From contig OZ316891.1 in NCBI GenBank assembly GCA_973895155.1, positions 26,529,972 to 26,593,971 on the forward strand: a stretch of 64,000 bases of DNA, given 5' to 3'. The notes below the pieces were generated by a model. The model was not told where the DNA came from and searched no databases. It saw only the letters and a list, made by a program, of their open reading frames with translations. Position 1 is the first letter of the stretch. Each line of letters starts with the position of its first letter. Below are positions 21,361 through 48,779 of this stretch, piece after piece. The position numbers and the translations under genes are program-made. Source of the stretch: Marsupella aquatica (lineage: Eukaryota > Plantae > Marchantiophyta).

Positions 21361-22121
21361 ATCAATCATGATGTGGCTCCCAAGGTACGTCAATCTTAGC
21401 CCGCTTTAACTCCCCCAAGAACCAATAGGCAAACAAGTGTGCCCAATTTTGATCCTTGTTCTGCTTTACATGCACTATTGTGAGACAAAAATCTTGGACT
21501 GAGACTCAATCATATGGAGCGTGTACCTTATGAAGTTAAACCGCTCCATGAAGGGTTGGTTGATACATGTTGACCTTTGTTTGTAGCCATTGTCCATTTT
21601 TCCTGTTGGGTCCATCCCCGGCATTTTGACCTCAAAATGTCGGGGATGGCCTCTTGGAATACCGGCTGACCCAAATCTTTGCCTTACTTAGAGCATCTCC
21701 ACCAGACCCAGAAAACAACCCCGTAACCTCCAATTAGTCAAATAGAGATTGGAACTTTGCGGGCAAGGCCTCCCACCGACACTCTTCAACCGGTAAACTG
21801 ATGGCGGCCCCCCCCCCCAAATTCCAGACACCGACCTCCAGAATTGTACCCGTTTGCGGTCAGAGAATGAGCCCGTATTTTGGCCCCTAGAAGGATCGAC
21901 GGATTTCAATCCATACACGCGGCACAATCTGGCCCAGGCTTGGGAAATCTGGCCCAGGCTTGGGTTCCCGCTTGGAGTTTCCCGCACTTGTTTTGGGTGA
22001 GAATTGCGCTTTTTGTCGTGCGACACTGTGCTGCACAGAGCTTGTGTCATGCGACACTGTGCTGCACAGACCTCGTGATTGATCGAGTGAAGCATGTACC
22101 TGATTGAGCAAGTCATCCAGG

Positions 22122-22590
22122 ATGGCAAGTAGTCAAGGGAAAAACTATTCTGAAAGCGAGTTGAAGCAGCTTTGCTATAGTGTGCTTCATGTTTCACAGG
22201 ATCCATTGATTGGAACTGGGCAGAGGGACAAGAAATTCTGGGATAGAGTCGCTGAACATTATCATAAAAACAAGGGGTGCGAATTTGAGACGCGAGGGAA
22301 GAAATCGTTGGAAGGGAAGTGGGCGGATATCAAACATGATGTCCAGAAATTCATAGGCACGTATCAACAAGTAGATGATAGACAGTTTCTGGGACAAACT
22401 CTGAAGACACGTTCAAATTGGCAAAGGAGTTGTATAGAGAAAATCATCCCAAGAACAGGAGTTTCTCTTTTGATTGCTGCTACTATATTTTGAAAGATTG
22501 TCCCAGGTTCATGAATCCAGAGAACGAGATGCAGAGAGGGAAGAGCAAGAAACAAGCAAGAAGTGTCGCAGACAAGGACAGCCCCACTGC
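22122..22590 (+). pseudogene. Harbinger Myb/SANT-like (NAM-associated) ORF, frameshifted and truncated
   Basis: MASSQGKNYSESELKQLCYSVLHVSQDPLIGTGQRDKKFWDRVAEHY..RGKKSLEGKWADIKHDVQKFIGTY, then after a frameshift AKELYRENHPKNRSFSFDCCYYILKDCPRF. Confidence 0.85.
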
Positions 22591-23044
22591 AGAGGTCGTC
22601 CATTGCATCAGCACCTATCCCGTATGCCATTTGCCGTAGTGCAGCAGTAATTTTCTGATGAGGAGAGAGACCTGGCTGTCCTGTTGCATCAAACTTCAAT
22701 TCAAAATACTTATCATATGCACACACTGCTGGAGGATTGGAATAACCTAGAACGCATACGGTACCTCCTTCTGAATTTCAACTCATCATATGTGGGATGC
22801 TCAGCAAAGTAGTAGTTATAAAGATCTTCAGCACCTTTTTCTCTCCTCCTATCAAGATTTGCAGCTTTCCTGGTTGGGACCATCCATGCTTCCTCTTTCT
22901 TGAAGACGAAATGCTGCAGGACTCGATCGACAAAGGTCCACTGAAGAGAATCTGTTGCCAGAAGCTGTCTTCCTTGTCCCAAATTTCTTCCTCTTCCTCC
23001 ATGAACTTTCGCAGATTATCTCTCCATGTCTCTCTGGTATCCAT
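22588..23044 (-). pseudogene. PIF/Harbinger transposase N-terminal remnant; DDE domain deleted
   Basis: Three frames give DRRREKGAEDLYNYYFAEHPTYDELKFRRRYRMRSRLF and YFELKFDATGQPGLSPHQKITAALRQMAYGIGADAMDD, the hallmark HTH region of plant PIF transposases. Confidence 0.88.
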
Positions 23045-27700: not shown

Positions 27701-28304
27701 TTTGAGGTACCTGTATCTTGAAAGTTTAGTAGTCTCTGGGTCTTCTGTACTCTCTGTATATGCTCAGGTGGTAAGACAACAGTCTGATGTGCCACTCGTG
27801 AAACATAGTCCGTTTCAGCTTGAAATCATTTCATCGCACTTCTGGTGGAATTAAAAATCGCTGACAGGTCACTAAATTGGCGTAATGGGGATTGCAGGAG
27901 AGGAGGAGAAAGAATACTGGAAGAAGCTCAGAGAAGGCCAAGGAAAGAGGCGTGAAAGTGGTGGCAGAGGTGATCGGGGGAGAGGACGGTGAGTGCCAGG
28001 CTTCCCATGAGTCCGATCTTTCGTGGATGTCTTGAATATTGATTCTCTGAGACTGCGATTCTGTGATGGAGTTGCAAAATTAGTGTAAGTTACTTACAAA
28101 GTTATTGGAATGAATTGATTTTTGTGATTGTGCAGGGGTGGCAGATTTGGTAGGGGAAGAGGAGGTGGAGGTGGAGGTAGAGGAAGGGGACGGTGGGATC
28201 GAAACGAAGAGCGTATGAACAACGGCGGGGCAAAGGGCAAGCATAAGCGCTTTAATGAGGACGAGGATTCGCGTGAGACAAAAGCCGCCCGAACAGACCC
28301 ATGA
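24729..28304 (+). CDS. La1: La protein (La motif + RRM1 + RRM2, RG-rich tail), about 10 exons
   Basis: Exons 24729-24779 (MVAPDLDAETQAKVLRQ), 24877-24955 (VEFYFSDSNLPGDKFL), 25548-25697 (LVSLPLVCSFSRMR..LRLSEDG), 25872-26013, ~26266-26410 (VNSVRLPR..FSGYATIEL), ~26529-26613, ~27005-27231 (DYPRGLLVSFKL), ~27462-27609 (FVDFSRGDVSGYARF), ~27898-27988 (EEKEYWKKL), ~28135-28304. Later boundaries are approximate. Confidence 0.93.
25078..25106. repeat. (AATC)n microsatellite in La intron 2
   Basis: About 7 consecutive AATC units. Confidence 0.95.
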
Positions 28305-28739
28305 ATTTTCAGCACTTAACTGGCAAAGTTTTGGTAGTTGCATTAGGTACAGGATCTCATCTAGGAAGTAAAACCCAGTTGCGGTGGGTTCCATATGTAG
28401 AGCGTAGAAGCGAAGCAAGCCTAAAATGTCATCCTGGTGACTTGGCTTTTTGTATCGACGAAATTCCTTGAGGCGGACTTCTTGTAGGGAAGTCCAGTCC
28501 GTGCGTACATGAAGAGTTTGAGAACTGGATGACTATCTAGTCAAAAGTTAAAACGTGACCGTGAAGTAATTAACAATTTTTTGCATTTTATCCAGTATTT
28601 TTAGCGACCTCTGGGTTGATGGATAGGTTCGTCCAAAGGATTTTGGAAGGTGGCTGATCGAATCGTCAAGAACGTGGAGAATAAATCGTATTTTATAAGC
28701 AATTCCTTATGAACCAATATTATAGGGATAGCGAAAGCC

Positions 28740-28900
28740 GCCGTCTTTGCACTCCGATCTCCTTAACCACTCAGTGGTCATTTAGGGTAGGGGCCTTAGC
28801 TAGTGATCTGGGCTGTTTCCCTCTTGACAATGAAACCTATCTTCACTGTCTCACTGCGTGATCTTTACTCAATATTGGGAATTCTATCCGGGATTTAGAG
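28740..28900 (-). pseudogene. Degenerate 23S rRNA fragment, plastid/cyanobacterial-like (probable NUPT)
   Basis: GGTCATTTAGG..GGGCCTTAGCTAGTGATCTGGGCTGTTTCCCTCTTGACAATGAA..TGTCTCACTG matches the reverse complement of plastid-type 23S rRNA domain II as recalled, with a local TAGGG duplication. Confidence 0.75.
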
Positions 28901-30329
28901 TATTCATGCCCCAGATCGTCTCTAGCCGGAAATATTAAAAGTACTCCAAGGCCCTCCACTAGTCGGATCTGCTCCATACCAAAAGGAGATTTGGCCCAAG
29001 AAGATTATTTTTATCGTAGTTTGCATGTTTACTGATGTAAGAGATTTGTAACATACTTTGCGTCAGTCGTGCCATCGCAGGGTCTCCTCTCACTATGTTA
29101 AGGCAAAGGGGTTGTTTATTCATTGACTGCCGTAATGCCATCAATTGATCATTTTGTTAAGCTTTTTATTATCCTGTTATGCAAGGCAATGGAATTGTTT
29201 AGGTCGATGGTTGACGCAACCATTCCACATGGTTTCTTCCTCGCTTCTCTACAATTTAAGCAGATTTATGAATATCTTGAGTCTTATCTTGAGCCCGTGA
29301 GCGCAATGGGTTGTTCAATGACGGGTCCTCTCTGCTTTCAATGACGGGTAATTCTCTCAAGAGAAAGTCACAATGAACGATTTGCACCGTACTTTCTCTA
29401 TAGAGATCCATCTTTCGGTCAGTGGAGTTTCTGAGAAATCAACCCCCTCGCAACTGTCGACAAGAATTTCTGGTAGGACTCGGGAGTACCTGGAATTGAA
29501 CACGACAATTCAACCCACTTACAACATCGATAAGATTTTTTGGTAGGACTCGGGAGTACCTGGAATTGAACGCGACGTACGTGTGCTAGGTAAACAAAAA
29601 GTCCATCCAGTGCTCCACTTAAGACGACTCTATATTGAGCGTCGCATAGAGTGGCAGCCATTTTGTAAATTCACGGGTCAGACTGGATGCACCGACCGTG
29701 GTAACTGCAGATGCATTCCCATTAGTATTGGCTTGGCGTGCTTCGTCACATCCAAGAGAGGACAAGTGCTAGTTCCGAACTGGCTCGTCAAAACACATCG
29801 TCGTCAAAACACATCCAGTTACTTCACGGCGGATAAATTAGCTATCAGTTCAATTCTTTGTTCATAAAAGAGTCGGTTCAACCACAGATGTTGGGTGGTC
29901 TCGAAATTCTAATTTTTCTTTTTGTTCGAAACCTGCTCGAGTCTGATGCTTCAACACCCGACTCCTTTCGCCTCCGCAATGTAGCTGAACAATTGGTGGA
30001 AAGTCCTTGGCGGGAGCACCTTTGTAAATTTGAGTTTCTATCCTGCTTGGAAATTCCTAAATACCAGAAGGCACTGCTCAATCCCACTCGGGACTTCTCT
30101 CCAGACGACTTTCCAGGACAATCTTTGTTATCGCCGCTTTATTCTGCCTTTCTAGGGCATTTTATCAATTTTGGCGGCCACAAAGCCGGGTGCCGTGTGG
30201 CTCCTCCAGGTGTACCAAGGGCCAGATTAGATTTTAGGCCGCCATAGCAACTACTCTGCAGGACGAAAGCCGGTTGCCAGTGAAGATACCCTTGTCGGTG
30301 CAACATGAATTCTGAAGGTCGGGTCACTA

Positions 30330-32480
<2,151 letters not shown>

Positions 32481-32910
32481 CGTGCTGGACGTACGATTGG
32501 TCACGATCAAGCGAACTGCAGGAGCCATCATTGCATTTCAGACATTTAAGTACGTCAAAATTCAGAGATCATGGAATGCTTTTGACAAGACGCTCAACCC
32601 AAAAGCGCCGTAGTAGTGAACGAAAAAGAGACGACTGTCAGTGCATAGATCGAGCTAAGAATTCTTCGAGGGAGCTAGAGGGGATGATTCGACCTCGTTG
32701 CGAGCGACTTCAACGAGACGGAGTGTAAAATTAATAGAGCTGTGTAGATTGCTACCCAGAGCTTCAAAGAAACGCTGCAACCTACCACTGTTGTTGCGTA
32801 CGAATTTGACGAATCAAGCGAGCGCTCCCGAATTGTGTGTGAGAGAGAGAGCTCGCAACGAGAGCTCAAGAGCAGATGCTCGTGCACCAAAAGTACAACG
32901 AGGTGGAGAT

Positions 32911-32958: not shown

Positions 32959-33552
32959 CTTTTGGTCCTGGATCAGCGCTTTTTGTATTTTCTGAGTACT
33001 TTTTACGGTCCACTTAGAGATTTTTGTAAATTTATAAATAACAAGAAAATTATATATCACCAGACAATTCATGTTAGTTGTATTTTATTTATGGATGGTG
33101 TTAATTGTGCAACGTGGGTTGTCACTTGTGTGATGATTAAGAACACACATGTGACTAGCTTGAAGAATATAGATTGTTTCTATGCACAAATGATACATGT
33201 TTTATGGTGCCAAATTCTAATATAAACTTGGATAGTACATAAGGCAAAAATGTGACAAGAAATTATTTAGAACTATTGATAGTGTTTGATCAATGGTCAG
33301 CACTTTGTAACGTGGTTCAGTCCGTAATCAATGGACAGGTTTTACTTGTACAAAAAATGTAATGTGTGTTTGACGGATAAGGCGTGCAAGAATTGTAACG
33401 CATGTGGGGTTGATGCCACTTGCCACGCGCAAGTGATAATTATTGCTTGTGAAGTAATAATTAGGTTGTGTCCAATATGTGTCAATAAACTCGACTATGT
33501 TACGTCGCCATATTTTGATAGATTCTTTGTCTATTGATGAGTTTGTTATTGT

Positions 33553-34402
33553 ACCTTTATCTTTACGGACCCCACTAGAGGTCCCTTCCAAAATTCCTGG
33601 CACCACAGCGTGTCACGTCAACAACAAAGCAACAAACAAGACTCGTCGGTTTTGTGAATCAAACTTATAGTTTTCATTCGTGTTTGTGTCAATTTGAGTG
33701 TAAATTTTGGGACGCCATGCCGTAAAAAGAAAAGTAAAAACATTGGAAATGCAAAGAGCAAGATGGTTAAAATTGTCACTATGTAACCGTTTTAGTTACA
33801 TTTCCAATTTTAAAACTTAAATTCAAAGATTTATAAAAAGTATTTTTCATATAATAAATAATGACTAATAACTAACTTGATAACTTCCTTGTTAAACCAC
33901 AACTCCCGGTATGTAAGGACCTCTCATATTGTACGGCCATTAATGTTGGGAAGAGCACATAGAAACCCAGGACCGGGGAGGAGGAATGGCTGGAATCTTG
34001 AAAGTTCATCGAATTTTATACTCAAAATTATTTACTCATTCTCAAAACAAAAAATACCCAGTCGTAGATCTCATTGAGATCTTTCTTTTGCACCCTAGAT
34101 CGCCTTCTAACATGGATGAATAAGATTTCTAGAGGCATTACAAAATGGATGGCAAAGATCGTAAAATCAACAAAATCGACGGCTAGAAAGGTTTGGATTT
34201 TGTTTAATTTTTCATTTGAAAAATATTAACCCATTTGCAAAACGGACAGAACACATCCTTAGATCTATTTGAGATCTTTCTTTTGAGCCATAGATTGGCC
34301 ATTATGATGGACGGACGATATTTCCGGAGATAAGAAATGGAGATGGCTCAGATCCACTCTTCCCCCTGATTTTATTAGCCAAGGGGTCCACGAACTAATT
34401 GT
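33553..34402. mobile_element. Non-autonomous TIR-like repeat, copy 1
   Basis: The left 230 bp align with 44745-44985 (TTTAC.GACC.CCA.TAG.GGTCC.TT.CAAAATTCCTGGC.CCAC ... CATTCGTGTTTGTG ... GCCATGCCG). The right end GGGGTCCAC is an imperfect inverse of the left GGACCCC. Confidence 0.55.
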
Positions 34403-35079
34403 ATTTATGAGACATGCATAACACCTTCAAGTAGCCTTATTGTGAAGGTGCGTGAAAACATTAAATAAGGGCCAAGCGTAATGTTTAACTAATGTTTTTT
34501 TGGGGGGTCTTTAAACAACCCACCACAGACAATTATAAAGCGTTGCCATATATGGATGGATTAGTTGGATTTGTTGTCTAAGTAGATTTGCTATTATGTA
34601 GGTAGATAAGACGTGTTAGGTGTTCGAACGAGTATCCAAGGCATGCTCGCACAGTTCCAATGGACTGATTGAGTATAAATTGGCCACTTCAGTCTATGTT
34701 TGATGCATTTGACAAAGTAAGTGTACGCACATTCAATTGACGATGTTTGATTCTATGTTAAGTTCTGGACTACTTTGCTTCAATGTGGGCCACTTGATCA
34801 TTTTGTCTGTCATTGATATGTGTTACTTTACATGTCACAATGCATATATTTATCTATCGTGTTTAGTGCAAGATCTTGAGTTGTTGGCATGCTACAATCA
34901 ACATTCCTGAGCTTTAAATTTTTGCGACAAATTGGTGAGAGATAAATATTCTCTATGAGCTATGTCTTTACGTTCATTAAACTTGCGTCGGGAAAATTGC
35001 GTGACAACAAACATTTAATCTGCAAAGGAATTCAACTAGACCGTCTGCAAGGCATTGGCCAAATGTTGATATCTTATGT

Positions 35080-37655
35080 AGGGAATGGAAGGGCCTATGT
35101 CAAAAAACCATTCGGAACATGACATGTTGTGGAAATTGTGGATTTGTATGTTATGGAAATAACTTAGAACATAAATTGTTTGAAATTGTGCGTGTAGATA
35201 GTACAGGAGTAGCTCCGTATGCATATTGTAATGCATTTCTAATACCTTACATACGCATTGATAACATGCATTACAATATATGCATGGCTTGTGTAAAGGA
35301 TATAGATAGAGGAAGTCTATTATCCTTCATGTCACCTTCATATATTCGGTCTATTCTAAAAGCAAAACCCCTGTATCTACAACTCTTATTTTTTAATAGA
35401 TTGTCGATTGGGGATAATGAACAAGTTTAATGGGTTTCATTCAGGTTTTGTAAGCAACAAGAGCTTACTAGATAGTTTGCTTATTTGTTGGAATCTAAAT
35501 ACATTACGGTGTAATAATATTGGTATGATTATGAATCAGGTTTACGAGGTGTTTGCGACTAACTTGCTTGTTAACAAACTATTTAAAAGATATTTTTGTC
35601 TGCTTGAAATGCCAGATCCTTCACTTGGAGTTTGTATTCTAACACCTGATGTAGTGCAGAATATCTACAAAAGAATAAGGAATTGCAACTTATTCTATGA
35701 CAGTCAATCCATATGATCCAGATATTTAGATACTTCATGATGTGTCATATTCAATACCTGTATCTAGGAAGCGTACGTAAGTATGATCTTTTTGAGTCTG
35801 GAAACCTGCACTTTACGAATGCTATATTACTAAGAGAGCTAATGATGACTAACGGGGATGGTGTGTCTGAAGACCAGGATGTGACATTCGAGACAACAAT
35901 GTTTCCATTTTTATTCCCTCATCAACATGGTCATTACCGCAGTGGTATAACATTTGCTGAGTATATTAAGAGAAGAACTCAACAATTGTTTAGTCCATTT
36001 ACGCTATACAAACCATATATGCTTATTAGTTACCAACTACGACAGTCGATACAGCTAGCTTCAATGACAAAAACTTTTATATTAGATAAAGAGTATAATA
36101 CACTTAGAAGCGTTAAACCAGACCTAACAGAAGAGGAAATTTTCCGATTGATGATAAGCAGAATATATCATGCTCAGTCCCGGGTAGTCCAGGTTGGCAT
36201 AGTAGTCATTTGAAGGATCTGATGTGCACTAGCCCCGACTACCCGTTCTTTGAACGTGAATAGCGGAGAGGACAATAAAAATATTATCAAAATATATTCT
36301 CTATTCATATTCTTTGAAGGTTAATGAAATGATAAAAAAAATCATCATTTTAATAGTCATATATAATATACCATTCTCCTTTATGTGCACATCAGTCTTT
36401 TTGTATGCACATCCACTTCTATGCACTATGTTGTGGTGGGGCCATAGTGCCATATTTTTTTTAATGTAAATACTTAAAAATTATCACAAAATTTTTGCAT
36501 GTATCAGTTGACATACATCATAGTCATGTCACCAATTTTTCCCATGCACATGATGGCCATAGAGTTATGGTCTAGAGGCTTCACTCTAGACCTAGGCTCT
36601 TAAAAGTAGACTTCAATTGGCGCTTTTATAGTAAGATGGTTCAGTATTGGGGTTTGCCTTCGTTTTTCCTCACTCTTACTTGTGATGAAGTGAGCCCTAC
36701 TAGATGGGTAGAGATTGATGACCTAGAGAAAGTTGTAAAGTCTATCAATGCAACCTCAACATGGAAAGATTGTCCTGTAGAGTGTGCAATGATATTCCAT
36801 ACCCGTGTTCAAAGTTTTCTTAGAAAGTACATTCTTTGCAGTGAAAATGGTGTCTTAGGAAAAGTGGAACATTACATTGCCCGGTATGAATGCCAAGGTA
36901 GGAACTCTTTGCATGGACATATTCTGCTTTGGTGTACTTTAGATGATGTAGATAGGGTCAGTAGTGGATCTAGGCATACATTCCAGCTCATTTTGATGAT
37001 AGTTCGGTAAGTTTATTGAACAATTTGATAACCTGATGACCAAATTATTGTATGGATATGTCAAAGCAACTGCATCGTTGCAAGGAAGGAGTGTGTATTC
37101 ATACTGATAGTGATACCAGTTTATGATATTGTAAAATGGGGTTTTCCGCATAAATTGCACATGGAGAAGAGTCCTTCTATTGACCCTGTGAGTGGAAAAT
37201 GGTGATATTTTCGTCCAGGAGTGGAACACAAAAATGTTGTTCCATATCATCCTGCCATTTTATCATTGTGAGAATATTGATATTTCAATGAAGTTGCTAA
37301 CGGTAGTAGTGGAGAAGTACATGATTTGCTTTTTTATGAGAATGACTTGTCTACAATAATTATTAAACTGCATAGTAACGGCAAACTAGTAAGAGTTGTG
37401 AGATCTTGTACTAAATACAAAAGAATCAAAAACATGATTAGTTACCAGAAGTCAACATTTCCACTAATGTTAGGATATTCAATGACTGGACGTAAATCAC
37501 AAGGATGTACTTTAACTAGAAAAGTTCTGGTTGTTCTAACTGAAGTGTTTGCTCCTGGTCTAACATATGTGATGTTGAGTCGTGTTACAAATAGGAAGAA
37601 TTTAAAAATTGTGGGTAAGTTATCTCCTTTGGATTTTACTGTCTTTAGAGAATGA
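35080..37655 (+). mobile_element. Decayed Helitron-type Rep (HUH)/PIF1 helicase gene, internally deleted
   Basis: N-terminal CxxC..CxxC; FETTMFPFLFPHQHGHY; PGSPGWH..LKDLM; GLPSFFLTLT; HUH motif YECQGRNSLHGHILLW (36912-36920); KNVVPYHPAILSL; PIF1 C-terminal motifs FPLMLGYSMTGRKSQGCTL and GLTYVMLSRV. Several stops and frameshifts; the Walker A/B region is missing. Confidence 0.9.
36227..36633. mobile_element. About 400-bp AT-rich insertion splitting the Helitron Rep frame
   Basis: The Rep frame ..HLKDLM(C) breaks off at 36226 and resumes as MVQYWGLPSFF at 36636. The insert starts CACTAG. Confidence 0.6.
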
Positions 37656-37695
37656 GATGTAGTAAGTTGGGGAATGACATGTGCAAATCTTTTGA

Positions 37696-38537
37696 AATGG
37701 CACCAAAGAGGAACTTCCACAACACAGAGAACTTGAAAGCAATTGAGAATGTTGTTTTCAATTACGGAAATGGTACACAACAATCTCCAGTCAACTTGGC
37801 ATCTGAATTGTCTCCTAAAGTGAAAGTAAGAACAATGGCAACAGAACATGGAACCCCGACAACCAAAGAGTTTTTACAAATGATCCTTGTTGATATCAAG
37901 CATGAAGGCACAAAAGATAAAGGGGAGGAACCAATGAAGGAGCCTACACCAAAACAAATTAGCTATGCAGATTCATGGGGATAGAGATGACAGTGGGAAG
38001 GTGGTATAAGTGTGAAGGGCACAAGTCTTCTCATTGATGCTAAAAAGGAATAACAACAAATGTTTTTGGATATGCATGGAGAGTATCCGGCATCTGGTAT
38101 GAATCTTACTTTCTAAATTGTTTCTAGCTATATATACATGGCAAATTCTTTTTACTAGATTATATATTCTGTGATTCTTATGTACATCTGGACTTGTGTG
38201 CAAGCATTGTAAAAGAATGTCTACGTTACAAACATGTTTCATTTGATATGAAACACTGACAAGGAAAGAGAGTATGAAATTACTGAAATGTCATACAAGA
38301 GGAGCAGCGATAGATCAGTTGAGACAGCTACGTCATTCATTCAAAGTACCTGTGGACATTTTGGTCAATTTGACAACAAACCAGGCAGGGAAAGTCATTG
38401 CTCAAATGAACAACAAACGAGATGCAGGTGGATTACGAGATATTCCAAAGCGTTCTTTGTTTGATGATGGTGCTACTTCTAGCTTTCCTGGAAGTATTAA
38501 GATAGAAGTATCTCCAGGAAAACGTAAATATACATAG
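37696..38537 (+). pseudogene. Unknown degenerate accessory ORF directly downstream of the helicase
   Basis: Fragments MAPKRNFHNTENLKAIENVVFNYG.. and ..MKLLKCHTRGAAIDQLRQLRHSFKVPVDILVNL..SPGKRKYT* start about 40 bp after the helicase stop; the sequence between them is disrupted. Confidence 0.4.
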
Positions 38538-39170
38538 AACACATACATTTTAACTATATGTAGTGTTTGTGGATGCTATCATAAGTGTGAGACTATTTGC
38601 TACTTTAGTTTGTGGAGATCAGCACACAAAAAACATTTCACCACGCTATATTGTACTACCTTTTAAGTACATGACTGATTCGGTGACAGAAAAAGTAATT
38701 GCCTGAGTGAATAGTCACTATGACAATTATATCTTTGTGAGACAATCTAAATTACTGCATTTTGAGTAGTAGTGTGAATTTGATTGGACTGTTAATTTAA
38801 ATGTGTTTCAGGTGAAGAATCTGGTTGCGGTTCATGTGACAATAGTGTTATGATTGTTTACATCATGATTACTAGTACTCAAACTGAATGCATAGACAAT
38901 CAAGAATTCATCGTAGTGGGCTAGTTAGCGGAGGTTGTGAAGGAAAAGCCATGTATCGATGGAAATATGATCGGTTGTTGAAAATGTTTTTCAAGCCAAC
39001 ATTCCAGGAAGAAGAGGCTCGTATGGAACTTTTGGAAGAGCTTTGGGATGTTTATCAAATAGTTGAGAATAGAAGTTGTCAAAAATGTAGTCCAAAATAG
39101 ACTAAAAAATTTGTTTTTAATCATTTGTAAAGGTCTAGCAACGTTAAGTTTTGGTGATCATTACTAGAGA

Positions 39171-40325
39171 CTACAAAGAAATCATTTTTGAAAGATTTAT
39201 AACTAAGTGGATGTACAATCTAATAAATTTAAGTATTTCTATGATTCTTTTGTAACAATCTATCCAGTTTTTATTTATCGTAAGAGCACCTACATAAGCG
39301 GCATTACTAGTTGAGCTCCTGTATGTCGTGCCATGTACAACATCACTACGGAAAGCAAAGAGGTTGCCATCTTCAATTCCTAGACGCATTCCATATTCAG
39401 GAATTACAAGGTTGATTGGCGAAATTGTTGAATCTGGATGACTAGCATAACATAGTGTAAACTCTGTCGTGTCTTCATCTTTGTGCATTTTGGTGCAAAA
39501 ATCTTTGGTGATGTAAAGTTGATAAGAGCTTGGCCCTTTACTTTCCAATTCTTTCTCAAAAAATGACATATCGTGGTCTTCAGGAAGATATGGGTGGGAG
39601 TATAATTTGAAATAACTTTCCAACACTGTAGGGCACCACCAAAAATGATGTTGACAAGCTCAAGATGAGAGTACTTATCAACTAAATCCTCAAAAATGGA
39701 AGTCGTGGATTGTGCACAATCTGTTAAGAGATGCCTGATTTTTGTTTTGTGAATATAAAAGATACTCTTTTGGACTTGTATGGATTATCAAAGGACCAAA
39801 TCCTGTTATGTACCTCTCAAATGATGCCTTGTTTTCTCCTCTTTTAATCTTGTAACGTGAATCAGATAAGGAAACTAATAAACTTCGAATGAAACTCATA
39901 GTTTCACATGATAGTTTTTGATGGCGTACAACCACTGCTATAAGATAAGGCTTGGATCCTGACCTATACATCGTAAAAATATGTATAGTTATGGGTTTTG
40001 TCCATAACCACAAAATCATTAGGAAAATCCCTAAATATAAAACCAGCATTAGAAGAGGAAGAACTAGTCTTCTTACCATTCCATGTTCCAAGGATGCACC
40101 CTTTGTAATGTGCAACACGAGAGGAAGCGATACGATGGACAGTTACTTCTACTTTAGAAAAAAACTACTTGTAGCACAAGAGGTTTCTTGAACTTTTCTC
40201 ATAATTTGAAGTTTTCTTTGAGTATAGTGAGAAAACATTCCAATGAACTAACGTATGGGTTTTGGTAAGTTCAACCTACATTGGTGATTGGAAAAACTTT
40301 CATCAATTTCTTTCCATGTATCCTG
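39171..40325 (-). pseudogene. TET/JBP-like Fe(II) dioxygenase domain, disrupted
   Basis: YQLYITKDFCTKMHKDED (HxD at 39485-39477), LVIPEYGMRLGIEDGNLFAFRSDVVHGTT (distal His 39335-39333), final strand YVGALTINK. The upstream same-frame ORF has KIKRG..YITGFG. Stops or compensating indels lie at 39660-39692. Confidence 0.7.
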
Positions 40326-40384
40326 ACAGAACATAGGAACTTCATTTTGTCTTTCCTAGCAATTTTTATACCCATTCCAAAGTA

Positions 40385-40885
40385 CAGCTTTTTACTGTCC
40401 TGTCCCCCAAACTAGCCTAATTTCATAACCTGCCCCCCAAACAAATTAAATTGCTAAGTTGCCCCCCATTCCGTAGATCAGTTTAGGCATACCCAGTACA
40501 TGGTCCCTGGTGCCACATGGCAAGTCTCCACTGGTCCTGGCTAAGCCCTCCCCCTCTACCCCTTCCCCATCAAGGCGCTCCCATCGCCGGCCCAAACAGA
40601 GCCATCCCGCTCCCGTCGCCGGCCCTAACAAAGCCCTCCCGCTCTTGTCGCTGGCCCGAACAAAGCCCTCCCAAAAATGACCCATTTTGGCCCCTCGCCT
40701 GTACTTGTGAGAACGCTGCCCATGCTTAGCCCGGACCAGTGGCGACTTGCCATGTGGCACCAGGGACCATGTACTGGGTATGCCTAAACAGATCTACGGA
40801 ATGGGGGGTAACTTAGCAATTTAATTTGTTTGGGGGGCAGGTTATGAAATTTGGCTAGTTTGGGGAACAGGATAGTAAAAAGTTG
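40385..40885. mobile_element. Mutator-like MITE with about 163-bp TIRs
   Basis: 40385-40546 is a near-perfect inverse of 40724-40885; exact 10-bp TSD TTCCAAAGTA at 40375-40384 and 40886-40895; GC-rich non-coding core. Confidence 0.93.
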
Positions 40886-41152
40886 TTCCAAAGTATAGCT
40901 TTGGAAAACTTTGAGGATCTATTGAGCGTGATATTGAGTACTTTTGTAACAAAAAGTACAAGAACTTTTTCGTCTCTTAGAATCAAAGAAAGTGCAAACC
41001 TTTCTTTTCCAAGGTGCAATTTGCTCAAGTATACCCAAATTTGAACAAATAAATTAACAGAGAAATCATCTCCCCATGCTTCACATTTATTTTCAATCAG
41101 GTGAGTTTTTTTCGTTTGACCATCTGCAAGAAAACAAAAATTATTAAGTTCA

Positions 41153-41470
41153 TAAAGTTACAACTTGGGTCAAACAAGACGCCAACTCTTACAAATGTGT
41201 GTACCAGAATGCTTTAATTTGTAACTTTTTAGAAAAATTCAAACATATATTTTTAGGTTTGTAAAGTTACAACTCGGGTCAAACAGTACACCGACCCTTT
41301 TGGATGTGTGTACCAGAATGCCTTAATTTGTAACTTTTCATAGTTTTTTCAAACATATTTTTTAGGTTTGTAAAGTTACAGCTTGGGTCAAACAGTACAC
41401 CGACCCTTTTGGATGTGTGTACCAGAATGCCTTGATTTGTAACTAAGTTTTAGAATTTTTTTCAAACATG
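41153..41470. repeat. About 118-bp tandem repeat x3, with a dispersed copy at about 46180-46262
   Basis: TAAAGTTACA.CT.GGGTCAAACA..AC.CC.AC.CTT...ATGTGTGTACCAGAATGC.TT.ATTTGTAACT recurs. Confidence 0.88.
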
Positions 41471-42212
41471 TACTTTGTTATTTCAAGGACAAGACTTTCT
41501 TCTCCAATGGGGGCTCATGATATACTTACTTTCTTGGCGCTGCTTGTATAAAGGAGAAGAGTAAACAGGCCTTGTAGCAAAAGGTCTATTTCCTCTCATA
41601 AAGTTCCAACTTTCAAGGTTGTCCACAATCTGCAAGTGGATAACACAAGAAACTTAGAAACATGATACCCAGAAAAGGTTAGGGTATTTTCCATAGACCA
41701 CACAACCAAGGATGGATTGAACGGGATATACAAGACATACAAAATTAATGCCTATTGCAATGGTTGTGAGTACACTGCCATGGACACTTCCCCTCTCTTC
41801 CTTAGCTGAGAGCCCTTCTTCAAAGCCCTAGTCAATGTACTCTTGATCACAGGAAACTCAAACTGCAAGATAAAGCATCCCTTGACTGATACACATACAA
41901 ATAGTTGTAGTATAGGTGTATGCCAACCCTTAGCTTCAACCACGTTTTGTTGTCATCCCCTAGTGCAGCTACCTGTCACAAAGGTGTATGCCAAATCTTA
42001 GCTCAACCATATTTTGTTGTCTTCCTCTAGTGTAGCTATGATATTCAAACCGCATATATGCAAACCTCTAGTGCATATTCACTAACCTGCTCCCCAAACA
42101 AACAGTTTGATGACAACAAAGCGGTCAGGATTTATAGCGTGTTTGCCAATTTGAAGCTCCCAAGCAGTACTCTTTTTTGGACCGTATGACATGATTTTGT
42201 TCTCCTTCCCAG

Positions 42213-42812
42213 CAATGGCTTCCAACGGGAAGTTGAGCAGGTTGCTAAAGGGGACGGTCGCCGGAATTGTGTTGGGGGTTCTAGCATTTGTGGTGTTGTG
42301 TATGTATTACATGCTGAAGTACTGGCTGACTTGGAAGAGCCGGGAAAAACGTGAGAAATCTGAGCAAAAATTCTTGTAGAAAGCAGTCCACCTTTAAGAA
42401 GAGTTTCTCAAGCAAAAGATGGCCAGCATGAAAGAGTACACATTTGACGAGATTGTCAAGGCCATTGATTACTTCAGCAATGAGAGACTCGTAGGGGAGG
42501 AGGGCTATGGCAAAGTGTACAGCGGGACATTAGGGGATGGTCACAAGGTTGCTATCAAGAGTGCGGAGGAGAGGTCCCTCAAGTTTGAGATACAGATCCA
42601 GCTGTTGTCCCGAGTACGTGCACCATAAAAATCTAGTTGCTCTGATCGACTATTGCAATGACCAGGGCGAGCAATTGTTGGTCTATGAATTTGTTGCCTA
42701 CGGTTCTCTATCATGGCATTTGTCCCCTGCAGCAAGAGTCCCTCTTACCTTCCTCACCTGACTCCAAAATGCTCTTGATTCAGCCAGGGGGATACACGAC
42801 CTTCATTGCTTA
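42213..42812 (+). pseudogene. Receptor-like kinase fragment (TM + kinase subdomains I-VIa)
   Basis: TM segment GTVAGIVLGVLAFVVLCMYYML, then YTFDEIVKAIDYFS..VGEEGYGKVYSGTL..VAIK..IQLLSRV/HHKNLVALIDYC..QLLVYEF..ALDSARGI. Stops at 42377 and 42759 and a frameshift near 42617. Confidence 0.9.
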
Positions 42813-44739
42813 TTTGAGCATCTTTCTACAAATTAAACAACATAGTAAGAAAAGTGTGTTTCTATGATCAGTTGATAGGATAGCCCGAGAAGAACAGTAG
42901 CCCTCCCATTTCCACTGGACTTGAGGATAATCATAAAAAAGAGCTGGATGACAACTACAGGTTTGAGTGAACCCTATGTTCGTGCATCGTAGAGATGCAT
43001 GTAGCACAGGAAGGTTGACTTTCAATCATCCAATCACTTTTTGATGGATCATTCCATTCCAAAAATGCTCTTCACACAATCATACAATTGATATAGAGCA
43101 GTGTTCTCATGGTACAAGAAACAACTTACAGAGTTTGGTTGTAGGGTGTATGACGGGGTAGCGAGGATCATCAGTTATCAGTTTTGCCGCCTTGAAATTT
43201 TTGAATCTCAACTGAGCAACTGAGATAGGGCCTTTGCACTTCCACACATCTCAGCTGGGCAGCTGAGATTGACTCAATTTCAGCTGACCTCGCCGAGATT
43301 GGCGTAAGGACAAAAAAAATTCAAAAAAACTTCTTCTTTTTTTGAAAAATTCAAAAAAAATGCCGACAAAATTCCGTGTCCATACCGTACGGGCACCTGA
43401 CTACCTCGACGGGTCTTGCCAAGATGTGGTATCCGTACGGTATGATGAGGTAGCGACTGATATCAGGTTGGCTGATGGAAAACATTGATAACTGATGATG
43501 TAGCTTTACTCGGTGTATGACTATAGGCCGATGATGTAGGCTATAGGTCAGCTCGCTTTTCCATTGAAAGTTGAAAGGCACGGTCAGCATAACCCCTTGA
43601 AACCGACGGTGATGATTATTCTACTCCAGTCAATACCGGAATTCAATGGAAATTCTACAGACACTTGAGGAGCAAACTTTATAACAAACGGACTACAGAA
43701 AAATTTAGACAGTGCAGTAGTAGACCATGAAGAGAACAATGAGCTCCAATTTCAACGAAGCAAACATGAAAACAAGGAATTGCAAAGTTTGAGCACAAAA
43801 TCAAGAAAAGATACGTCAGCTCAGATTCCTGAGAAGGAGTTTATGGTTCTCAAAACCCTAGAGAAAAGCCCTCATAGACCTAAAGAATGGTTTTGGAAAC
43901 TCTGATGGGCACAATCGGACCCAACAATAACACAACAGGCCCTCAAGAGAACAATGTTACTTGATAGGACCCTTGAGGTTTGGGCTACGTTTATTGAAAC
44001 TCTATTATGGTCAATCAATGGTTTGGATCACTCACGGGTACTATGGAGTAACACTTTTCTTTTGGGGGGCCATCAACCAAACGCGCAACCAAATTCCCCT
44101 AAGTTGTGCTATGGAGCATAGTTTGATGTGTGTATTATCACCCATCGACACAAAGGATTGACAACATGCCCCCATGGAATTGCAGCACGGGGAAAATTTG
44201 GTGCTATGAGTCCATGTAAGCATCTTGTCAAAAGTAAGTATCAAAATTATAAATTGTGTTAAAGAGCATAGTTTGATGAGTGGATTATCACTCATAGACA
44301 CAAAGGTTGACAAGATGCCCCTATGGAATCGCAGAACCCTGATAATCTGGTATTGTGAGCCCATCTAAGCATCTTGTCAATGTTATATATAGTGTTATGG
44401 AGTCTAATTTTCTCTAGTGTTCTTGGAACCCTGAAGAAAACCCCCCATAGATGTACAAGGTTGGTTCTGGATATTGTTTGCGTATATCAATTTGGGGAGC
44501 AGGTTAGTGAAACGTTAACGTTCTTCCAAAGCTCTTTTATGGTTGAATTGGATGGCAGTAGTAGGCTAGCATAGATGGGAAGAGCCCTCACACACAAATT
44601 AAGGAGGCCAGGTGAGCAATTGGATAGTACGGGTTTGTCTAAAACATGTTAACAAAGAAATGGTGGGTTGACTAAAACCCAACTATACCTTGACTCCTTT
44701 GTGCAGGCCTTTAATTTGCAAATATTTAGAAAAAAATAA

Positions 44740-45890: not shown

Positions 45891-48779
45891 TTTGGAAGGG
45901 GGGCACAATAGGCAAACAAAGCCCAAAATGCCAATCAAATTGTAAAGCAAAAGTTGAAAGATAGTCTACAATATACCACACAGCCTGAGTGTAAATTAAC
46001 AATGAAATTACTTTGCTAACCTTTATGATTATGGCCATCCAAGAAATGTTGTCCCATCTTAATAATCACCTTCCTCAAATGTTATTTGTACCCACAAAAC
46101 AAGTAATGCCAATTGTAGAGTCCAGCTGATAGAAATGACAACACTTTGCAATTTATTGATGTTTGCAATTTATTGATGTTAAGGTCACAATTGGGGTCAA
46201 ACAATACACCGACCCTTGTGGATGTGTGTATCAGAATTCATGCCTTGAGTTGTAACATTTTTGATTCATAATTTCCTGAGAGGTGCAAACATCTATAGAA
46301 GGGTATTCTCCTCATCTAGAACATTTATTTCATCTAAACCCTCACATCTTCCCACACCCTAATTAATATCCCTGCCCAAAGCATGCAGCCAACAAAAATG
46401 AGTTCTTTCTTGAGGGGCCTCATAGTTAGAATAAAGGTATATTCTAGGGAAGCATGAATACTGCAAAGACACTTTTCTTATTGGTAGAACCTGAAGAAAA
46501 TGTGAGGGTACGAATCCAATTGAAACTAGCCCTCAAATCTCCAAAATTCAGACCAACAAAAGAAAGAATTGTTCATTTTTGGTCCACTCTCAAACAATGT
46601 TTATTAACACCTATTTAGGCAGGCAATCCATAATTACACTCACATCACACAAAGCTTGTGAAGAAGTCTTTCAACAATGAAGAAGTCTTTCAACTTGCCT
46701 CTCTTCAATGTAATGTGGTCTGAATGGCTTAGCAATGTTGCATTGAGAAGAATGGAACTTCTTTGTCTTGAAGTTCCAATCTGAGCCCAATTGAAAGCAA
46801 ACAACATGGATCAATGAGATGAGAGGTGTGATAAAAAACATTTGTGCCACTCCATCGCTCCCTTATCATGGAGTTGAGCTTGCCACTCAAGAAAATTGTC
46901 AAGTCGTCACAAACTTCATGAGTCACAAACTTCATGATGTTTTGACGGCTCACACTACAAGGTTGTCAAAGTCATCAGCAGTTTGTGACATAAACCTTAC
47001 CTTTGATTGTGGAAGATGGATTGATGTATTTGAAGAACTTTTGGATCTTTTGTTCAAACTGAAAGTTTCAAGCATGGTCTCTGATGTCCAATCCATTGTC
47101 TGACAAAGTTTGAGACTTTTTTGAGATCATTGGCTCCATTTCCAATGAACACAAAGATGGTCAAATATTCTAAATCATGATTTCTTTACACATGGAAATT
47201 TTCATGTGAGTCAGCTATTACTGGTGTTCCTGAGTAATTGCATGAAGTCTTGATGCCTTTCAGGTTAAGGTCATCAAGTTGTCCAACTACCAAGGACACC
47301 GGTAATTTAACTGAACCGGCTGCAAACTGCAAGGAGACCGTTTACAGGTCACATTTCAGTCAAAACTGTAAACAATAATACCGGAGTCAATTTAAATGTT
47401 CTGAGCAAGTCCATCCAAGCTTTCCCAGTACATCTAGGCAGCATAGACGATGTGGAGATCCATCCGGGCTTCAGTTTCACACAACCTGTGATGAGTGTTA
47501 ACTTCTGTAAAATACTAAGAGAAAATAAATATTAAAAAGTACAAAGAGAAAAAGCTTGAAGGGGTGTAAGTTTATTCAAGCACTCCTGATTGGAACTTGA
47601 AGCTGGATGGGCCTCCACATTGTGAAAAAGACTCAGTTTTTGCAACATGGATGGACCACACCAAAACTGTCTTTGTGCTCATATAGTACAGACTACACGA
47701 TGAGTGAAATGCGGCAAGAAAATTAGACTGTTCATAGGTCTCCCAGTTCTCAATGGAATGTGACTATCATTAGATTAATTTGTAAGATCCTCAAAGCATT
47801 TTCTGACTAGCATAAGAAAATAAGATTCAGTTGGACATAGCGGGAGAAACTGAATGTCAAAGTTAGCTGCTAAATCTTTACGACAACTTAAAATGTGTAT
47901 AGTGAGTGATGGAGTGGTCTTAGAAATTCACAACTCACCCAATTAATCATCAAAGTAAGAGCTATTAAACTCATTGGAAAGATCTTTCTAAGACACTTTT
48001 AACTAGGTCAAGAAGAGCCACTTCCACTGGATAGAGAAAGGGAGATATTCAAGGTCAAACTCTGTTCATGAAAACCAAAGGATGTCAACAACTGAAGGTG
48101 TAAAAGGTGACATGGAGCATGAGATTTACATGGCTCACAGGTGTAAAAGGTGGCATGGTGCATGAGATTTACATGGCTCACAGGTCTGGTCAATAGGAAC
48201 ATGGCTTTACTCCAGATGTAAAGTAGGTATTGATGTTCACCAGATGTAAAGTAGGTCGGGGAAAAAGATCTGTCACAATGTGAATAACTTTGCAAGGATG
48301 AAGTAGCCAGGCTACACGTAGTCATAGAAAGTACCATACATAATGGCAGCTGGAAGGGACACGTACAACTGAAGCCAGTTATGTCCAAAAGCATTAAGGG
48401 GAGTGAGACAGGATTCCCTCTTGTTAATTTACTGTTTTTAAAAGTGTGTGACCTCTTTGCCATTGGGGACCCTTCGCTATTTTTTTATTAATTTTTTTTT
48501 TTTTTAAATTGAAAACTTTATTCCAAGGAGAACCAAAAAAAACCAAAGCCCGGGAGGAGAAGGCAGGAAAGAACAAGAGCAATTAAGGGGGCAATAAAAG
48601 GAGCACACCCAGTGAAGATGAAGGGCGACCTCCACCCCAACTACCAGAATGGAGGAGGCGGAAGAGAATGGGAGGGAGGACCCCAAAGAGGATAGAATGC
48701 TATCCTAAGAAAGTAGCCAAAGAAGTAAAACATCGACTAGTAAAACCTTCATGGGAACTGAAATGGACTTGCCATCCCC

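Follow-up and report, generated by a model that had tools for sequence, protein, structure and literature searches.

A broken gene for a predicted TET/JBP-family dioxygenase, convergent with a Helitron2-type Rep/helicase in a land-plant genome

TET/JBP genes have been found on Helitrons of rusts, Pezizales and Agaricales (excerpts of PMC12730594), and in Chlamydomonas they were described in the elements Helitron2-2_cRei and Helitron2-3_cRei (excerpts of bioRxiv 10.1101/2022.06.16.496473). Helitron2-type elements are also known from land plants, and HELIANO detected in some HLE2 elements a 2OG-FeII_Oxy_2 domain, which was described as belonging to a repair-type enzyme (excerpts of PMC11417382). 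The TET family itself has been described in recent papers as not found in land plants. The available parts of PMC13519894, PMC4738411, PMC8788227 and PMC10288648 added no land-plant TET/JBP gene, and a full-text literature search, judged by titles and starts of abstracts, found no report of one. The pairing of a Helitron with a TET/JBP gene is already known from fungi and Chlamydomonas, and what is new here is the land-plant host and a divergent subfamily of the enzyme. This novelty would be lowered if the phyletic tables or supplements of Iyer et al. (2009, 2013, 2014) contained a moss or other plant TET entry, which they may.

The DNA analysed here (the window) is a stretch of 64,000 nucleotides. 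Our preferred reading, to which we assign a probability of about 0.6, is that it holds a dead copy of a multi-copy unit of a land-plant genome, in which a Helitron2-type Rep/helicase and a convergent predicted TET/JBP gene likely form one Helitron, and that intact copies of this element would alter the methyl group of 5mC and blunt silencing.

The TET-like gene and its neighbour

The following features were delimited (positions are those of the window).

33000..44700, no strand given: multi-copy unit, approximate extent from depth by bin; the right end may lie further out
35005..37655, plus strand: broken Helitron Rep/helicase with PF14214, Pif1 matches and Rep motif 2; the start of the range is from translation only
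36229..36636, minus strand: nested non-autonomous element in Rep (joint 36227-36636, high depth), with ends read as Helitron1 (TC...CTAG, between A and T)
37656..39170, no strand given: spacer between the convergent genes, with raised depth equal to that of both genes
39171..41123, minus strand: broken TET/JBP-family dioxygenase gene, colinear with the intact relative P0003 and matched by the family profile in six pieces
39174..39659, minus strand: catalytic core in a single frame, with HxD (His codon 39485), a conserved Asp at His+4 and the distal His at 39335
40385..40885, no strand given: MITE inside the TET-like gene, 501 bp, with 163-nt terminal inverted repeats
42155..42830, plus strand: receptor-like kinase fragment (PF07714, E 2.3e-4; translation), with element-like depth

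The TET-like gene comprises about 450 codons, has no visible intron in its coding part, and encodes a helical N-terminal region and a dioxygenase domain. When the 2774 stop-to-stop pieces of the window were scanned with a family profile from which the window ORF had been left out, six colinear pieces were matched from 41157 to 39174 (E 2e-59 to 2e-3), and the next-best piece had an E-value of 0.5. P0003 aligned colinearly between 41064 and 39270 of the window, and homology stopped near 39260. The sequence-only reading had started the gene at 40325. This limit must be moved, as the gene goes on through the MITE to a probable ATG at 41123. A basic patch follows this start, and is also present in the relatives P0016, P0029, P0038 and P0048. 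Three 109-bp tandem units (41141-41476) lie just upstream of the start, and a fourth copy is found 4.8 kb away (46168-46260).

The frame of the catalytic core runs from stop to stop over 162 amino acids (39659-39174, minus strand). Both the minus-strand peptides and the HxD...H arrangement from which a TET/JBP-like enzyme had been proposed were found in this one frame, and the window copy itself retains the iron triad. The same proposal had called the copy dead, and the lesions agree: the gene is interrupted by the MITE, which is flanked by a 10-bp target duplication (40375-40384 and 40886-40895), and it also has two stop codons, at 40358 and at 40250, and no fewer than four frameshifts (near 40160-40190, 39966, 39780 and 39641).

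The Helitron Rep/PIF1 gene reported about 1.5 kb away and convergent with the TET-like gene was recovered in that arrangement, with 1516 bp between the two reading-frame ends. Rep was matched by PF14214 (E 1.2e-18 at 36576-37007, plus strand), and the C-terminus of the helicase (37281-37652) by Pif1 helicases and Helraiser (best E 2.7e-6). The middle of the helicase is deleted near 37270, and the nested element sits exactly within the Rep coding region. Rep followed by a Pif1-like helicase is the order required for Helitron2/HLE2, and this order is present in the window. Rep motif 2, as read from the window translation and judged by a published rule that distinguishes Helentron/Helitron2 (excerpts of PMC4067079) rather than by a tree, carries the Helentron/Helitron2 signature, with F/Y-x-x-R preceding the motif and a Ser ahead of P/L-HxH.

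Relatives, predicted fold and active site

A word-index search yielded two relatives: P0003, an intact protein of 456 amino acids with 57% identity in the core (one of 119 candidates confirmed), and P0002 (146 amino acids, 61% identity; one of 7 candidates), both encoded on assembly contigs. The same search started from P0003 returned only P0003 itself among 538 candidates. A full scan of 1.84 billion representatives gave 46 relatives with E-values up to 0.001, and 46 clusters at less than 50% identity keep the triad. In the 48-row alignment, 30 of the 32 rows that cover the first His have it, 28 of 32 carry the Asp, and every one of the 24 rows that reach the distal His keeps this residue. 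Pattern searches of viral contigs (88 matches) and of metagenome contigs (74 and 163 matches) yielded no confirmed relative. A tblastn match in a phage (E 0.3) lay on the strand opposite to the annotated gene and was discarded as chance.

The family is nearly invisible to domain profiles. P0003 had no Pfam match to Tet_JBP (PF12851) or 2OG-FeII_Oxy_6 (PF20515), and PF20515 matched the window ORF with E 0.15 and 12.4 bits, below the cut-off of 27. Among the 48 members PF12851 was found in one (E 2.9e-4) and PF20515 in three (best 1.4e-3), in a range extending to 0.1. Sequence and profile searches of the PDB found no TET, only chance matches; in PHROGs a 2OG-Fe(II) family was obtained for P0002 only (E 0.11). 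Language-model neighbours fell into clusters in which 15-31% of the members are Tet_JBP or PF20515, and were used as a lead only, as were the atlas matches of P0003, for which recognition was low (1576). Of the 48 rows, 22 had enough core sequence for a tree, and 26 were left out as too short there. This tree lacks a named outgroup and is for the most part unresolved; P0035, P0040 and P0047 form a divergent, well-supported branch in it.

The fold was predicted for the intact relative P0003, not for the broken copy of the window. An AlphaFold2 model based on the 48-row alignment had a pLDDT of 86.9 and a pTM of 0.86, and a single-sequence fold (pLDDT 35) was not used. In Foldseek all listed rows down to rank 23 were CMD1, CcTet, TET2 or NgTET1 (E 2e-7 to 7e-5), with CMD1 first and TM-scores by query length of only 0.29-0.41. 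Isopenicillin N synthase came next at E 8e-5, and unrelated dioxygenases lay within an approximately 400-fold range of E-value. A second, independent aligner, run against 48,161 chains, ranked the same four proteins first: TET2 had Z 16.7 (rmsd 4.2, 257 residues aligned), CMD1 15.2 (4.0, 254), CcTet 13.8 (4.1, 251) and NgTET1 13.3 (3.9, 221), followed by ALKBH3 with Z 11.5 (rmsd 3.1, 172 aligned). Among viral models, the best seven rows were two named JBP1/TET domains, four unnamed models and one with another name. Residues 14-116 of the N-terminal region were barely covered by the fold search. Assignments of the AlkB, PHD or PhyH type ranked below TET/JBP and were rejected. The TET/JBP-like identity had been made to depend on the best structural match not belonging to another 2OG-Fe(II) family, and the top four structures bear it out. 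The model makes a TET/JBP fold, a double-stranded beta-helix together with the elements that surround it in TETs, very likely for the family.

The active site departs from that of the known enzymes. In TET2 and NgTET1 an Arg binds the C5 carboxylate of 2-oxoglutarate, whereas in CMD1 Trp358, which follows His345 by 13 residues, occupies the position of this Arg and blocks 2-oxoglutarate, and ascorbate is used (excerpts of PMC7854593). In the present family the strand after the distal His (positions 436-445) has no Arg or Lys in 19 of 22 rows. Because the classic 2-oxoglutarate-binding Arg is absent, the chemistry may be unusual and, as far as the sequences tell, CMD1-like. We file the family as a divergent TET/JBP subfamily, not as classic TET, PE type or CMD1 type. 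In the divergent member P0046 the classic Arg after the distal His is retained, and this protein may link the family to ordinary TET/JBP enzymes; a comparison of P0046 with the alignment was left unused as circular, this protein being one of the alignment rows.

The strongest alternative to the preferred reading keeps the same element and the same target, and differs from it in chemistry alone: the enzyme would be CMD1-like, using ascorbate or another co-substrate and leaving a bulkier base in place of 5mC. It overlaps the preferred reading, and we regard it as possible but rather unlikely. Apart from the strand without a basic residue, a Tyr at first-His+12, kept in 24 of 29 rows, can be set against Trp358 of CMD1 at His345+13 (excerpts of PMC7854593), and Thr or Ser at His-8 (23 of 28 rows) and Thr at distal-His+2 (20 of 25) correspond to Thr337 and Thr399 of CMD1, all these equivalences being drawn from residue spacing, not from superposition. 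CMD1 was also the top row in Foldseek. However, TET2 outscored CMD1 in the search of 48,161 chains, CMD1 itself retains an Arg at the aligned position, and an Arg at distal-His+5, kept in 17 of 22 rows, might replace the lost one. For the co-substrate taken separately, ordinary oxidation with 2-oxoglutarate to 5hmC and beyond has, in our estimate, a little less than an even chance; CMD1-like chemistry is a lesser but still substantial possibility, and any other chemistry is doubtful.

Copies of the unit and linkage of the two genes

Parts of the stretch are covered by five public runs, which come from three studies of two organisms and served for the study of sister copies; the run that covers it best may be the window's own source. 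Median depths in run X1 were 92 (minimum 64) for the Rep/helicase, 103 (68) for the spacer and 90 (53) for the TET-like gene, compared with 16.6 for a left-flank contig (3664 bp, identical to the window), which represents unique flank. In run X3 the corresponding medians were 127, 197 and 168 against about 63 in unique-looking contigs. Contig depth does not equal copy number, and in run X2, judged from part of its contigs, depth was uneven (32 to 1519). The full 3.7 kb of Rep, helicase, spacer and TET-like gene is tiled by contigs 150-730 bp long, which are a few percent divergent from the window sequence. Taken together, the level, raised depth and the tiling contigs indicate, indirectly and in two organisms, that the TET-like gene was copied along with the Rep/helicase. 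Linkage of other copies to Rep/helicase had been named by the sequence-only reading as decisive, and the tiled short contigs, which cover all three segments at similar depth, support it.

The sister contigs carry fewer of the lesions. The MITE is absent from them in X1 and X3 (joint 40374-40886), and the nested Rep element in X1, X3 and X4. They extend into helicase sequence that the window lost near 37270, and have loose ends at 37269/37270. The comparison covered 40 of the 238 base differences, the best supported and not a random sample, together with 12 of the 47 indels. Among these, all four runs had sister contigs with an indel close to the frameshifts of 39641 and 39966, and three of the four had one at 40157; the base abolishing the stop at 40250 was found in four of four, and conserved Rep and helicase residues were restored. 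Neither the 40358 stop nor the frameshift close to 39780 had a counterpart among these 40 differences and 12 indels. The missing insertions and the repaired stop and indels indicate that both genes are in a better state in the sister copies, and a fully intact copy likely exists.

These data bear on a second alternative, according to which the TET-like gene is not cargo of the Helitron, and the two neighbours were copied together by segmental duplication or within a larger, different element. Searches for the termini of both Helitron types, among them the short terminal inverted repeats, hairpin and T-T insertion site of Helitron2/HLE2, found no convincing ends, raised depth continues past 44.7 kb while the left edge is blurred, and among the run contigs no single one spans both Rep/helicase and the TET-like gene. 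Three low-depth spacer joints, two of them into the TET-like gene, were not counted as linkage since their sides measured only 23-30 letters. On the other hand, a scan of the 79 open pieces of at least 58 amino acids in 32.9-49 kb detected no transposase apart from the Rep/helicase, depth stays level in two organisms from one gene across the spacer to the other, the two genes look better preserved together in the sister copies, and Helitron-TET pairing has been published in fungi and Chlamydomonas. This alternative appears improbable to us, and we consider it likely, with good confidence, that both genes lie inside one Helitron.

Several other insertions were noted in or near the unit. The receptor-like kinase fragment is likely a second passenger. 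An exact 21-nt inverted repeat (42078-42098 and 44491-44511), which resembles MITE ends, flanks it at a distance, and fragment and repeats could be a separate gene-carrying element. Two related inserts of very high depth (33563-34398 and 44747-45890) lie between T and T with no target duplication and show short inverted motifs at their ends; we read them as non-autonomous HLE2 elements, possibly moved by such a Rep/helicase. A further insert of high depth (43145-43511) has a 10-bp target duplication.

Target, host and comparison with known systems

Under the preferred reading an intact Helitron would express the TET/JBP-family enzyme, which would enter the nucleus, flip out 5mC and alter its methyl group, and CG/CHG silencing of the element would be weakened as a result. 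The benefit, escape from CG/CHG silencing, is suggested by analogy with fungal and algal elements. That 5mC in DNA is the target seems probable from two features, an Asp near the cytosine-reading position and the nuclear-signal-like basic patch at the N-terminus of several members. The Asp, at first-His+4 in 27 of 31 rows, is a candidate reader of cytosine N4, near the TET/CMD1 position. The claim that a Helitron family here carries its own 5mC-modifying enzyme has two parts: depth and the tiling of short contigs indirectly link the Rep/helicase, spacer and TET-like gene, and the 5mC-modifying activity is putative, as the classic 2-oxoglutarate Arg is absent.

A TET/JBP-like enzyme acting on another substrate (thymine, RNA or a single-stranded transposition intermediate) and unrelated to 5mC silencing is a third alternative, which we hold to be quite improbable. 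The last strand has no clear counterpart of the base-stacking aromatic residue of TET2, NgTET1 and CMD1 (the residue is mostly Val, Thr or Ala), the candidate cytosine-reading Asp is one residue nearer to the His than in TETs, which have this residue at His+5, and other activities have been left open for related fungal types (excerpts of PMC12730594). But the Asp is well kept, one extra residue puts it at the usual five-residue distance in P0035, P0040 and P0047, and the four nearest structures all act on 5mC.

The decay of the window copy carries a methylation footprint. Among the tool's best-supported 40 of 238 differences, not a random sample, 22 were losses of the C-to-T type in the window copy, the direction being inferred from the restored residues. 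Eleven were in CHG, six in CG and five in CHH context; CG and CHG together made up 17 of 22, compared with 20% expected (p 1.7e-8). CHG methylation is maintained by plant chromomethylases (excerpts of PMC11065753). The CG/CHG-biased decay shows that the host methylates the TET-Helitron family and that the window copy is a methylated resident of a plant genome, which argues against contamination. It also shows that the enzyme gave this copy no long-run protection, as it was methylated and decayed.

On the evidence of a class III peroxidase, an LRR receptor kinase and an F-box/kelch gene in the window, the host is a land plant or a close relative. The stretch from 28000 to 32520 (minus strand) was matched by PF00587 (E 0.003); it had unique depth in X1, and raised depth with deletion joints (30936-31885) in the runs of organism B. 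From its motifs we take it to be a seryl-tRNA synthetase gene. A decayed leucine-rich-repeat-like remnant was seen in translation at 46600-47700 (minus strand), with no Pfam match. At 22104-22777 there are two convergent open pieces without Pfam support which, to judge by their motifs, look like a Harbinger transposase and its Myb-like partner. Misassembly of fungal or algal DNA into a plant contig, to which the fungal or viral origin of the nearest language-model clusters and the resemblance by eye of some motifs to fungal PE-type TETs might point, is hardly credible. Both genes contain insertions of repeats that reach very high depth in the same runs, decay favours CHG, which is the context of plant chromomethylases (excerpts of PMC11065753), the unit recurs across three studies and two organisms, and the peroxidase and the receptor kinase lie within the window.

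The preferred reading extends the strategy of transposon-borne TET enzymes from fungi and Chlamydomonas to a CG/CHG-methylating host, and the TET/JBP family resident there has an intact 456-residue member ready for expression. Its altered co-substrate site could yield a DNA base not seen before, or an enzyme for epigenome editing adapted to plants. A bolder version, which we judge unlikely as a whole, is that land plants harbour an old, diverse TET/JBP subfamily that resides in Helitron2 elements and escapes Pfam, and whose intact recent copies would write a non-classic 5mC mark (CMD1-like, without 2-oxoglutarate) against CG/CHG silencing. If this is true, plants would contain a transposon-encoded enzymatic anti-silencer, from which the oxidised cytosines that have been reported for plant DNA might stem.

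Among the enzymes of known structure, TET2, NgTET1 and CcTet share with the present family the predicted fold, the iron triad and the Thr at distal-His+2. They are only 8-12% identical to it, and the family lacks their C5-binding Arg and a clear base-stacking aromatic on the last strand. Chlamydomonas CMD1 (PDB 7cy4) is alike in fold, in HxD...H and, by spacing, in an aromatic residue where the C5 site for 2-oxoglutarate would be. It differs in sequence (13% identity), in the Arg kept at the aligned place and in its vehicle, the non-Helitron element DNA-1_cRei.

The fungal PE-type TET/JBP enzymes, carried by Helitron1, Helitron2, Zisupton, EnSpm, Plavaka and IS3EU elements, resemble the present family as transposon cargo and, by eye, in layout and in short motifs at the start of the domain, in the strand before the distal His and at the distal His itself; in one part of Table S1, four of eight rows also lack the post-His Arg (excerpts of PMC12730594). 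Their hallmark is HxE (excerpts of PMC12730594), whereas the present family has HxD in 28 of 32 rows and, in the same comparison by eye, adds a helical N-terminal region of 130 residues. Helitron2-2_cRei and Helitron2-3_cRei of Chlamydomonas, likened here by description and not by sequence, share with the present locus a TET/JBP gene on a Helitron2-type element of the green lineage, and what sets the present locus apart is its host, a land plant with CG/CHG methylation.
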